64,000 nucleotides of DNA from Eledone cirrhosa (lineage: Eukaryota): NCBI GenBank assembly GCA_964016885.1, contig OZ024746.1, positions 59,024,001 to 59,088,000 on the forward strand, in the 5' to 3' direction. Positions 5,573 to 53,562 of this stretch are shown piece after piece; within the stretch, counting starts at the first letter, position 1, and each line of letters opens with the position of its first letter. The notes under the pieces are model-generated. The model saw only the letters and a program-made list of their open reading frames with translations. It did not search any database and was not told where the DNA came from. The translations under genes were made by a program, and so were the position numbers.

Positions 5573-5637
5573 TATTTTATCTGATGAAAGCACACCATAA
5601 TTTAACTTGGTGTCCTTGAAATATGTATAATGAAATA
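5573..5637 (+). ncRNA. Type I hammerhead ribozyme (minimal stem III)
   Basis: tattttat CTGATGA aagcacacc-loop-ggtgtcctt GAAA tatgta TA atgaaata. Stems I and II both pair. Confidence 0.85.
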
Positions 5638-6154: not shown

Positions 6155-6739
6155 GAGTATGTGTGTGTATTTATTTATATATGTCTCTTTCTCATTCTAA
6201 TACCATTATACATTTTAAAGGATTATAAATAAAACGAGTAAATCAAACAATGTTGGAATTCCTTTTATTAATATAATCTTCTATACACAATCATACACAC
6301 CCGTGTATATTTATTTATATATATATATATATAACTTATTAATAACACATTTAAAATGATAAATACAAAATTAGAAACTGGTTTCTCGCTCTCACATAAC
6401 TAATTACATAAATGTATTTATGAGTTTTATATCGAATAATTATAATAATATTCAATTCATTTGCAAGCAAACATTTTCATTACGTTATGTTTTTTAAGTG
6501 ATCGCCGTCATCCGTTTGTTCTAACAGTGGGATAGAGAAACAATCTACAATGTTGTTGCAGGGTTATCGCCCTTTGTCAAGATTGTTTATCGCTCTCAGA
6601 TACTCGCTTGAATTGTTGAAAATGTATACAGGCAATATTTATTAGAATGCTGTTAAAGTGGAAATACATTATTTGGGGACATCCTGCATATTTAAAATGT
6701 TATATTAATCTTTATTACTTAGGGGATGTTTGTAATTAA

Positions 6740-9092: not shown

Positions 9093-9135
9093 ACGTTGCT
9101 GACGATAGCTAATAAGCTTGAAACTAGTACACCGT
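9093..9135 (+). ncRNA. Minimal type I hammerhead ribozyme
   Basis: acgttg CTGACGA tagc taataa gctt GAAA ctag TA caccgt, with palindromic loop 3 (ctag). Confidence 0.8.
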
Positions 9136-9511
9136 TCCTTTGTCAGTGTTGAACAAACGAGCAACGGTGGTTGTTAGACACTACGGCTTATTACGGGATG
9201 ATTGTTTACAAACACACCGAGCATTATTCGGTGAACCCATACGTACATATTTATATGTGTGCATGTATGTATATATATATACATACTACTGTACGTCTGT
9301 ATACATATATGTATGTACGTATACATACTTATATTTAAGTAACAGTTGTACTAAGAGTGGGAAATGAAATTTCGTTTCATTTTTTCCGTTTATCGTTTTC
9401 GGTGCACCCGGCCGATTAACCCACTCGATATGCAAATTGGGCTACTCAGCCGTTAATATGCATAAGGAAAGTATATACCTTCGGACGTTCAATCATCTGA
9501 CAGGAAGGTAT

Positions 9512-9554
9512 ACGTTGCTGACGATAGCTAATAAGCTTGAAACTAGTACAGCGT
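9512..9554 (+). ncRNA. Minimal type I hammerhead ribozyme
   Basis: acgttg CTGACGA tagc taataa gctt GAAA ctag TA cagcgt. Stem I is 6 bp including a G-U pair. Confidence 0.88.
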
Positions 9555-9863
9555 TCCTTTGTCAGTGTTGAACAAACGAGCAACGGTGGTTGCTAGACAC
9601 TACGGCTTAATACGGGATGTTTGTTTACAAACACACCGAGCATTATAATAAATGTTCGGTGAATCCATACGTACATATATATATGTGTGCATGTATGTAT
9701 ATATATATACATACTACAGTACGTCTGTATACATATATGTATGTACGTATACATACTTATATTTAAGTAACAGCCGTACTAAGAGTGGGAAATGAAATTT
9801 CGTTTCATTTTCTCCGTTTATAAATATATATATATATATATATATAAATATATATATGTATAA

Positions 9864-12562: not shown

Positions 12563-12671
12563 CATTCGTGGGATGCGAGCCGATGCTGCAACTTCGATTA
12601 TACTCACATTATATATATAAAGTAGAAACAATTATTTTAAAGTAGAAACAATGACCCTCCATCTCAACTCT

Positions 12672-12709
12672 ACTTTTGAAAAGCAGAAGAACTGCGAAAC
12701 CGGTAAAGG
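12672..12709 (+). ncRNA. Hammerhead ribozyme, U3-A8 variant core
   Basis: actt TTGAAAA gcag aagaa ctgc GAAA ccgg TA aagg. Confidence 0.7.
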
Positions 12710-12873
12710 AACCAAATAAATATATATATGTTTTTTTTTAAATAAGACTCCAGTTGCATTTTCGATTTCATCTTTTTTTTGTTTATGCTTTCACTCGTGT
12801 AGGACACCTCGGATATTTTTTATTTTGTAAAAAAAACCTCACTTTCTAATAATATATATATATATTAAATTTT

Positions 12874-19638: not shown

Positions 19639-20032
<394 letters not shown>

Positions 20033-20042
20033 TTATTTCGTT

Positions 20043-20080
20043 CCTTTACCGGTTTCGCAGTTCTTCTGCTTTTCAAAAGG
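20043..20080 (-). ncRNA. Hammerhead ribozyme, U3-A8 variant core
   Basis: Minus strand: cctt TTGAAAA gcag aagaa ctgc GAAA ccgg TA aagg, inside an insert (20030-20230) homologous to 12655-12850. Confidence 0.75.
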
Positions 20081-20222
20081 TGTGTTGAGATGGAGGGTCT
20101 GTGGTTTTTCTCACATTAAAAAAATAAGACTCCAGTTGCATTTTCCATTTCATCTCTTTTTCTTTATACTTTCACTCGTGTAGGACACCTCGGTTATTTT
20201 TCATTTTGTTAAAAAACCTCAC

Positions 20223-20291
<69 letters not shown>

Positions 20292-41239: not shown

Positions 41240-41338
<99 letters not shown>

Positions 41339-41340
41339 TT

Positions 41341-41720
41341 ATATATTGGTAAAAGGAAAAGAAAATGCTGACAAATTGTTCCCAGTGAAAAATAGTTTAA
41401 TTAGGAATAAGTAAAAATTAGTAATAATATTGGTTAGTATTCAGTTTTGGCTTTAAGTTTTACCGGTTGCGCATTTCTAATGCTTTTCAAAAATAATTTT
41501 GAGATAGAGCGCCCGTGATGTTTGCTCAGATTAGAGCAAACATCACGGGTGCTCTATCTCAAAATTATTTTTGAAAAGCATTAGAAATGCGCAACCGGTA
41601 AAACTTAAAGCCAAAACTGAATACTAACCAATATTATTACTAATTTTTACTTATTCCTAATTAAACTATTTTTCACTGGGAACAATTTGTTAGCAATTTT
41701 CTTATCCTTTTACCAATATA
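41341..41720. mobile_element. Near-perfect ~185-bp-arm fold-back with a U3-A8-type HHR remnant in each arm
   Basis: Centre at ~41530. ttt TTGAAAA gcatt agaa atgc GCAA ccgg TA aaa at 41568-41603, with GAAA>GCAA in both arms. Confidence 0.8.
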
Positions 41721-41996
41721 TCATAACTTGTGTGTTACACCTCTATTCTTTTAAATATATATATATATATATATATAAGTATGTATACGTACATACATAT
41801 ATGTATACAGACGTACAGTAATATATATATATATATATACATATATATACATACATGCACATATATATATATATGTACGTATGGATTCACCGAACATTTA
41901 TTATAATGCTCGGTGTGTTTGTAAACAAACATCCCGAATTAAGCTGTACAGTGTCTAGCAACCATCGTTGCTCATTTGTTCAACACTGACAAAGGA

Positions 41997-46039: not shown

Positions 46040-46265
46040 TGTAACGAAGGAAATGTGGTACGGAACCAGATGGACCATAACGCACCAAAGTACTCAATAC
46101 TTAGGGTAGTAGAGTGGGTAATAGGAACGAGTAGGACCCCGACGACTGAGCTCAAGCCGTTTCGACGGCTAATTCTGGACTAAAAAAAATAATAAAATAA
46201 TTTTTTTTTTTAGTCCAGACTTAGCCGTCGAAACGGCTTGAGCTCAGCCGTCGGGGTCCTACTCG

Positions 46266-50290: not shown

Positions 50291-50375
50291 ATATATATAT
50301 ATATATATTTCCCATTTCCTTAACATGTTCAACATCACATTATTTTCTCTACAACATTTTATACCAATACAAATT

Positions 50376-50418
50376 CCCCTCTTTGATAATGCATAAAATG
50401 CTGAAACCGGTAATAGAC
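50376..50418 (+). ncRNA. Hammerhead ribozyme, U3-A8 variant core (UUGAUAA)
   Basis: cctct TTGATAA t gcat aaa atgc t GAAA ccgg TA atagac. Stem I is imperfect. Confidence 0.6.
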
Positions 50419-50651
50419 AATTATTAAATATATAAATAAATAAATGCCATTGTTAATTAATAAATAAATTAACTAATACCTTAACACTTCACACAAAGTA
50501 AAATATTTTGTTTTAAACATTTTCTAACCCAGAAAAAAGAAAAAAAAGAAAAGGAAAAACAATTTTTTTCTTCCTAATAATCGTCTTTTTCTCCCTATTT
50601 ACATATATATATATATATATTCTAACTCGTGTGCTCCTTCTCCACATTTTA

Positions 50652-52474: not shown

Positions 52475-52539
<65 letters not shown>

Positions 52540-52541
<2 letters not shown>

Positions 52542-53562
52542 TGTTCCTCGTGAGGAGGTTGTATCTCAGCTTCTTCGGGAGCTTCCGCCGGTCGCAGATG
52601 TTGGTCCAGGCGGCGTTGATGTGCTCCTCTATCTGCGCGGGAGTGATTCCCGTGACCTTGGAGTAGAAGTTGTCATCGTCAAGGTGTTGGAGGGCCAGGG
52701 TGTTGTAGGCCTCTCTGCTGATGACGCAGAATTCTTTTCCCTTGTCGGAGGGGAGATAGATGAGATTCTTCGATTTCGGGTTGGAGAGAGTGGTGAGTTG
52801 AGATTTGGTGAGGTTGTGTGTTGTGCGTGTGTGTGTTTGTGAAGTATATCCGAGATGGAGTGTTTTAGCCTGATGAGTTTAATGTCGAGTTCGTGGTTGG
52901 TGGGTGGTGGGTGGAGGGTGTTGTCGGGGTGGTAAGTGGGGAACTTGGGGTGGGTTGCGTGGGCGTTGTTATTTTCCGTGGCGATGTTGATGGCGGTCAC
53001 CCATTTAAGTTGGTAGGCGGCTCGACAGAAGTTGGCTTCGATGTCGAGTTTGAGTCCGTCGTCGAGTCGTTGTGAGACGATGAACTTGGGTCCGAGGCGT
53101 AGGAGTTTCAGCTCGTCGCTCGTGAGGGTGCCGGTTAGGTCGGTGACCACGTGCGTCGCATCGTTGAGGTGTGGCTCGGTGTTGGTGGATGCGGCGGCGG
53201 CGGCTGTTACATTGTTGTTTTCCACGTGGTTCTGGTCTGTCTGTTTGTTAGTGTCGCTGTTCTCGTTGTGGAGTTTAGACAAGATCCACTCGTTTTTTCT
53301 TCGTATTGGACTCTGGAGTGGTAGCACTGGTCGATTGCTTTAGTGATTTTAAGGAGCAAGTCGCCGGGTATTATTGGCAGTCGATGTGTCCGCTCTGAGA
53401 GTGTCCGCTTATGGATGTGTAATTGGCGGTTGAGATGTCTCAGGATCTGTTTGATACACGTGCGATGTATGCGGTTAGTGGTGTTTTGGAAAGCTGGTGT
53501 ACGTAGGCTTCCTGGTAAGCGGATGTTCCTGATGGTGGTGGGGATGACATCGTCAATCGAAA
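52540..53562 (-). mobile_element. Penelope-like element ORF fragment (N-terminal region to the DKG motif of RT), two frameshifts
   Basis: VVTDLTGTLTSDELKLLRLGPKF, then in the next frame NLTKSQLTTL..LIYLPSDKGKEFCVISREAY..QHLDDDNFYSKV. GC-rich and bounded by (TA)n on both sides. Confidence 0.85.

Follow-up and report, generated by a model that had tools for sequence, protein, structure and literature searches.

The closest described relatives of the motifs analysed here are the hammerheads of the Cercyon Penelope-like elements (PLEs) of Schistosoma mansoni, for which Cervera and De la Pena (2014, PMC4209133) reported a covariant U3-A8 core pair and about 1,300 matches. The same report describes palindromic helix III sequences in PLE hammerheads of several invertebrates, with low activity as dimers, and those of Drosophila virilis Penelope, rotifers, shrimps and mosquitoes are presented there with a self-complementary helix III, a short helix I and a dimer requirement. 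PLE hammerheads with small palindromes are also credited to Lunse et al. 2017 (as cited in PMC6765202 and PMC6466107), and Perreault et al. (2011, PMC3088659) reported active natural hammerheads with U3-A8 and with U10.1-U11.1 as the first stem II pair. As for the elements themselves, the Neptune and Nematis endonuclease-bearing (EN+) PLEs of Craig et al. (2021, PMC8557442) are described with a reverse transcriptase (RT), a CX2-5CxxC linker, a C-terminal GIY-YIG domain, pseudo-LTRs, inverted 5' copies, insertion at (TA)n, an optional frameshifted ORF1 and a hammerhead near the 3' end whose function is called unclear in that paper (for further context see bioRxiv 10.64898/2026.07.22.740005, PMC6466107, PMC7229834 and PMC6962438). 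Our literature search on U3-A8 hammerheads surfaced PMC4209133 alone, and searches on C3U with G8A and on octopus hammerheads in Penelope elements gave, respectively, no paper and nothing on the present motifs; the Lunse et al. 2017 catalogue of PLE hammerhead variants lay outside the reach of these searches.

The stretch of DNA that we analysed (the window; 64,000 nucleotides of the Eledone cirrhosa genome) carries motifs that share with the Cercyon hammerheads the U3-A8 core, a pseudo-LTR site, a predicted dimer and an occurrence mostly as single truncated copies and opposite-strand inverted pairs. They differ from those described in PMC4209133 in number (at least 23,494 + 12,930 here), in having a helix II of 4–5 rather than 7–8 bp and a CCGG loop III, in the presence of one family with C13, and in that most families lack an extra nucleotide separating position 9 from 10.1. 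Unlike the D. virilis, rotifer, shrimp and mosquito motifs they have U3-A8 as core pair, and a non-systematic look found no intron end at helix I; the Perreault et al. variants, with which they share U3-A8 and the U10.1-U11.1 pair, are few in copy number and are not high-copy retroelements, and the accessible passages of that report contain no A13C. An earlier note on this DNA implied that the U3-A8 core was new, but this core had already been published for PLE hammerheads (PMC4209133); the motifs here are further members, and the core pair by itself adds little.

The motifs at 12676(+) and 20076(−) (named here by the position of U3) both read exactly TTGAAAA-GCAG-AAGAA-CTGC-GAAA-CCGG-TA, as the earlier note had described them. 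Its description of 41571(+) is right in the compensatory change of stem II, but the motif is TTGAAAA-GCAT-TAGAA-ATGC followed by GCAA-CCGG-TA, an A13C change that went unmentioned; 41490(−) is its mirror copy. The form written for 50383 has to be replaced by TTGATAA-T-GCAT-AAA-ATGC-T-GAAA-CCGG-TA, in which an additional U stands on either side of stem II (U10.1·U11.1). By folding, contiguous helix I is 3 bp at 12676 (with an A·G mismatch beyond), 4 bp at 20076, 3 bp at 41571 and 1 bp at 50383. The loci at 20076 and 41571 are inverted pairs, window positions 12653–12865 share 93% identity, across 215 nt, with the 3' end of an element that encodes RT and endonuclease (RT-EN; locus L032), tblastn with the family A protein found no coding remnant in the window, and a repeat search of the window was dominated by microsatellites, in which this AT-rich genome abounds. 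From sequence comparison the window motifs (Table 1) are assigned to truncated or inverted copies from three related families of one Penelope-like lineage.

Table 1. Positions of Penelope-like fragments and their hammerhead motifs in the window.
Feature	Position	Strand	Details and basis
3' end (pseudo-LTR) of Penelope-like family A, 5'-truncated, ends (TA)n	12653..12856	+	Matches L032, L131
Predicted type I hammerhead motif, family A	12673..12708	+	Sequence, pattern scans, folding
Helix I of this motif	12673-75/12706-08	+
Helix II of this motif	12683-86/12692-95	+
U3; A8; A9 of this motif	12676; 12681; 12682	+
G12-A15.1 of this motif	12696-99	+
ACCGGT palindrome of this motif	12699-12704	+
Predicted cleavage, after A17	12705	+
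Family A fragment with second motif	20012..20116	−	Motif 20043-20080, U3 20076, 4-bp helix I; sequence, family A/L131 comparison
Inverted partner segment of the same insertion as 20012..20116	20118..20235	+	Pseudo-LTR part 3' of motif; 94% to L131
Family E pseudo-LTR fragment	41526..41849	+	Motif 41568-41603: U3 41571, A8 41576, C13 41592
Mirror arm of the family E insertion	41327..41531	−	Motif 41458-41493, also C13
Family B pseudo-LTR fragment	50308..50620	+	Motif 50382-50413: UUGAUAA core, U10.1·U11.1, 1-bp helix I

The carrier was identified at loci outside the window. At L032 a 510-aa frame with RVT_1 and GIY-YIG matches over the Pfam cut-offs and a Cx4Cx2C linker is followed, after 1,373 nt, by the family A motif; the Cx4Cx2C linker is found between RT and EN in families A and E alike. 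Of the 84 scored matches to the family A protein, many have a 775-aa open frame; in 25 of the top 30 loci a sense-strand motif follows the RT + GIY-YIG frame by 1.0–1.6 kb, all of these motifs are U3-A8/GAAA, and the 11 full frames are 99.6% identical. Full copies have the motif again ahead of ORF1, at a motif spacing of 4.7–4.8 kb, and pseudo-LTRs in tandem and inverted copies stand at both ends of L131, L120, L156 and L158; the order at L131 (inverted motif, motif, ORF, motif) is the layout described for Penelope-like elements in PMC8557442. Families B (50383), D and E (41571) each follow their own RT-EN, about 50–59% identical to that of family A in most segments, and the family B motif was found about 430 nt past an RT-EN remnant at L033, L078, L081 and L082. 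On these sequence features the carrier is an endonuclease-bearing Penelope-like retroelement, with the motif as the putative type I hammerhead of its pseudo-LTR. The CX2-5CxxC linker is common to Neptune and Nematis (PMC8557442), and the likeness is one of features, the tree having no named Neptune references. In that quick tree of 54 proteins, which has short rows (family B covers 25% of columns) and long branches, the six rows from this genome fall in one 14-row clade (SH-aLRT 99) together with eight database proteins, and families E and B are sisters. Among 83 outside loci scanned, 29 unrelated metagenome loci had a sense motif; five of the 29 motifs were U3-A8 and none had C13, and in the five closer outside relatives where a motif was detected (41–49% identity) it was C3-G8. 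The simplest reading, which these sequences do not prove, would be one origin of U3-A8 in this lineage and recurrence elsewhere. A non-LTR retrozyme was rejected as carrier: the motifs sit in 4.7–4.8 kb coding units, not in 170–400 nt non-coding tandem repeats.

Several further observations were made on these elements. In full-length A and E copies ORF1 and RT-EN overlap (L131:3444-3470 (+) and L165:1500-1520 (+)) at the sequence CAT TTT TTA GAC in both, a site conserved despite 56% protein identity between the two families. It contains U UUU UUA, which we take to be a −1 slippery heptamer, so that the overlap is likely a programmed −1 frameshift; no strong structure was predicted downstream of it. 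Family E 3' ends lie 1.6–2.1 kb 3' of family A frames at L124, L125 and L126, which suggests that one family has inserted beside the other in nested fashion. One upstream pseudo-LTR (L131:2138-2150 (+); a single case) has a duplication of about 10 nt just 3' of the predicted cleavage site. PLE RT-EN proteins also occur under bacterial or symbiont names (L454, L455, L456; P0012, P0039, P0042, P0056), three of them with adjacent hammerheads, and these are likely animal host DNA in those assemblies.

Pattern counts in the 3.0 Gb Eledone cirrhosa genome, with the reversed pattern as control, show how common the U3-A8 core is. Exact matches of the pattern UUGANAA…GAAACCGGU number 23,494, and those of its control 61; for C3-G8 with the identical 3' half there are 121 (control 163), and of the 100 listed almost all come from other families. 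The UUGAUAA form has 2,730 matches. Mismatched cores with the identical 3' half number 245 for C3·A8 and 201 for U3·G8, about 1% each, which fits drift after insertion. A CUGANGA family consensus with the U3-A8 copies as mutants, an outcome considered in the earlier note, was thus not borne out, since UA predominates on these counts; in this genome U3-A8 is what the families normally carry and no product of decay, and the proposal of a real variant lineage holds. The argument by which that proposal had been reached, joint change of both positions at four loci, does not survive, because the four loci are retrotransposed copies of three families and are not four independent covariations. Moreover, in an alignment of 12 representative copies (row G of which is misaligned by one base and row H of which is an A8C copy) the 3-8 pair is U-A in 11 and is never changed on both sides. 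The U3-A8 pair stands with U16.1, A17 and a G12 A13 A14 A15.1 core in families A (12676, 20076) and B (50383).

The expectation that CUGANGA-type searches overlook the motif agrees with Rfam, which gave no hammerhead match at E ≤ 10 on 12620–12760. This test is insensitive for PLE motifs, since a C3-G8 control motif at 9500–9571 matched Hammerhead_HH9 (E = 0.0049) with 20.4 of the 52 bits of the gathering score. Among the Rfam matches listed for the whole window (150 of 385) there was no hammerhead, and these consisted of hairpin and microsatellite noise. A MALAT1 match at 12625–12710 was dismissed as chance (E = 0.1, 25 of 70 bits), and a microRNA hairpin reading of the motifs was likewise rejected.

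In the 12 representatives helix II is paired in 93.8% of cells, and all four of its pairs show two-sided change; this covariation is partly a matter of register shifts between families and of related sequences. Helix II is base-paired in all families; the 10.1-11.1 position that closes it is G-C in A, C, D and E, and family B has U·U, U-A or U·C there, a variation published as tolerated (PMC3088659). A15.1-U16.1 and the C-G pairs are invariant, and ACCGGU is present in 12 of 12 representatives (which were chosen with CCGG); it is self-complementary, with a duplex energy of −8.3 kcal/mol, and most predicted dimers pair intermolecularly. Position 17 is A in 308, U in 6, C in 3 and G in 2 of 319 copies, UC and UU occurring as family states, and U3, U4, G5, A6, A8, A9, G12, A14 and a non-G residue at 17 are kept across families that are 50–59% identical in protein. 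Helix I is paired in 66.7% of cells, and folding gives it 1–4 bp in every U3-A8 representative, where two C3-G8 controls of this genome have 6–7 bp. In the predicted fold of 41571 the 5' core strand is buried in another hairpin.

Family E departs further from the hammerhead consensus, in that A13, invariant in type I hammerheads, is replaced at 41571. This motif has 10,329 exact matches in the genome, with GCAA in 98 of the first 100 listed; U3-A8 motifs with a residue other than A at 13 number 12,930 (control 208), and C13 is found in 99 of the first 100 of these. A search with the family E protein gave 70 scored matches of 98–100%, and 24 of the top 30 loci (which, as best matches, are biased to young copies) have a 784-aa open frame (median identity 99.7%), with YLDD in 22; the frames also carry an LIY…YIG motif. 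C13 is present in all 26 downstream motifs of the 30 top coding loci, in all 52 parsed upstream motifs, and in both E subfamilies (94–97% ORF identity). Family E is a young sister family with coding capacity, its copies numbering over 10,000, in which C13, a second core change, is fixed. Changes of A13 cost 10–100 fold according to PMC4075628, which cites earlier work, and C13 on top of U3-A8 would likely weaken self-cleavage. No paper on A13C was found in our search, which did not extend to the catalogue of Lunse et al. 2017, where C13 may be listed. We suggest, tentatively and at somewhat less than an even chance, either that family E is a natural core mutant that barely cleaves, so that PLEs would retrotranspose without need of cleavage, with the ACCGGU dimer signal retained, or that U3-A8/C13 may constitute an undescribed working core.

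If cleaved RNA were the template for insertion, 5' ends should accumulate after A17 of the upstream motif. For family A, 90 of 136 ORF1 matches were classified: 56 traverse an intact upstream motif, five end inside it, one has its end within 3 nt of the site and 28 stop downstream. The corresponding numbers for family E (90 of 93 ORF1 matches) are 55, two, four and 29. The single family A junction at the cleavage site compares with 0.9 expected (P = 0.61), so there is no pile-up in that sample. The four of family E also compare with 0.9 expected (P = 0.013), but they are placed in a tandem 8-nt repeat that makes their placement ambiguous, and this excess is not used as evidence here. The templates are mostly uncleaved or re-ligated, two states that the junction test has no power to tell apart.

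The reading that we favour, and consider reasonably probable, is that the motifs, in EN+ PLE pseudo-LTRs, cleave slowly after A17 as double hammerheads joined through their ACCGGU palindromes, probably with help from protein, and that this cleavage is likely not needed for insertion. Two motifs, either 4.7–4.8 kb apart along one tandem transcript or carried by separate transcripts, would pair through ACCGGU to form helix III; U3-A8 would take the place of the C3-G8 tertiary pair, leaving position 8 its 2'-OH and G12 its role of general base, if known hammerhead chemistry applies. Cleavage, presumably slow and protein-assisted, would occasionally trim read-through or tandem transcripts about 170–190 nt ahead of the ORF1 start, and uncleaved or re-ligated RNA would serve as template. 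The anole PLE hammerhead offers a precedent: it is reported to cleave only with protein, insertion in vitro proceeded without need of cleavage, and there were no reads at the site (PMC11167929); the mechanism proposed here also follows PMC4209133 and PMC6765202. Against this reading stand the helix I of 1–4 bp, the predicted misfolding of 41571, the fixation of C13 in a young coding family and the family A junctions, of which one in 90 falls at the site. In addition, in a type III construct only a C-G to G-C swap was reported to rescue, all other double mutants of the region being low (PMC9901934), a result that counts against easy tolerance of U3-A8.

The short helix I and the A13C change of an amplifying family would also be expected if catalysis had been lost and the motif retained as a structural signal (helix II with ACCGGU dimerisation, or protein binding), U3-A8 being the relic of an active ancestor. 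The occurrence of U·U, U-A and U·C at 10.1-11.1 of family B and the missing junction pile-up of family A point the same way, but core residues and a non-G at 17 have persisted across families with only 50–59% protein identity, unrelated PLEs also have U3-A8, which is reported active (PMC3088659), and the PLE motif of D. virilis has a helix I of 2 bp (PMC4209133), so that we regard such a loss as unlikely. More improbable still is a fully active ribozyme essential in vivo, in which transcripts would be cut at the two motifs, ligation would close them into a circle of unit length, and reverse transcription beyond one unit would restore an intact motif at both ends, C13 being tolerated. Such a circle was proposed in PMC4209133, and the intact upstream motifs are equally expected from it; the 10–100 fold cost of A13 changes (PMC4075628) is moderate enough to allow it, and the majority motif is the same in both E subfamilies, although they differ at 21 of 203 resolved flank columns, a comparison weakened by the copies having been picked by motif. 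The anole PLE, in which cleavage is not needed and the site has no reads (PMC11167929), and the weak predicted folds argue against it. That the motifs are decayed CUGANGA hammerheads or chance matches has a negligible probability, given the 121 C3-G8 cores with the same 3' half, nearly all of other families, against 23,494, the presence of U3-A8 in young intact elements, and the three matches of TTGANAAN{8,24}GAAACCGGT in the window against none in each of 100 shuffles.

Families A (A13) and E (C13) form a matched pair of young coding elements for a direct test of the hammerhead's role in PLE mobility, and the C13 family would, if the barely cleaving alternative is true, be a living-genome demonstration that PLE retrotransposition can do without hammerhead cleavage. 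CUGANGA descriptors and Rfam overlook at least 36,000 copies of the motif in the genome analysed, and since such descriptors miss U3-A8 copies, hammerhead counts in similar genomes are low.

The window also holds other hammerhead-like motifs and repeats. A canonical C3-G8 hammerhead family (CTGACGA…GAAA-CTAG-TA) is present at 9099(+), 9518(+), 42602(+) and 42033(−); its 10.1-11.1 position is U·U, and helix I reaches 6–7 bp in all but one of these copies. There is an inverted hammerhead-like pair (CTGATGA…GAAA-TATG-TA) with an 8-bp helix I at 5581(+) and 5472(−), and a TTGACAA…GCAA motif with an 8-bp helix I lies at 6580(−). Near-perfect long palindromes, which stand between (TA)n tracts and belong to another repeat family, occur at 19768–19865 and 46131–46264, and also at about 15905(−); they are probably the inverted ends of another retroelement. 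Finally, positions 52539–53277 match L040:5366-6082 at 91%, a segment that overlaps the start of a frame whose RVT_1 match is only 26% identical to family A, and this segment is probably a fragment of a different retroelement.
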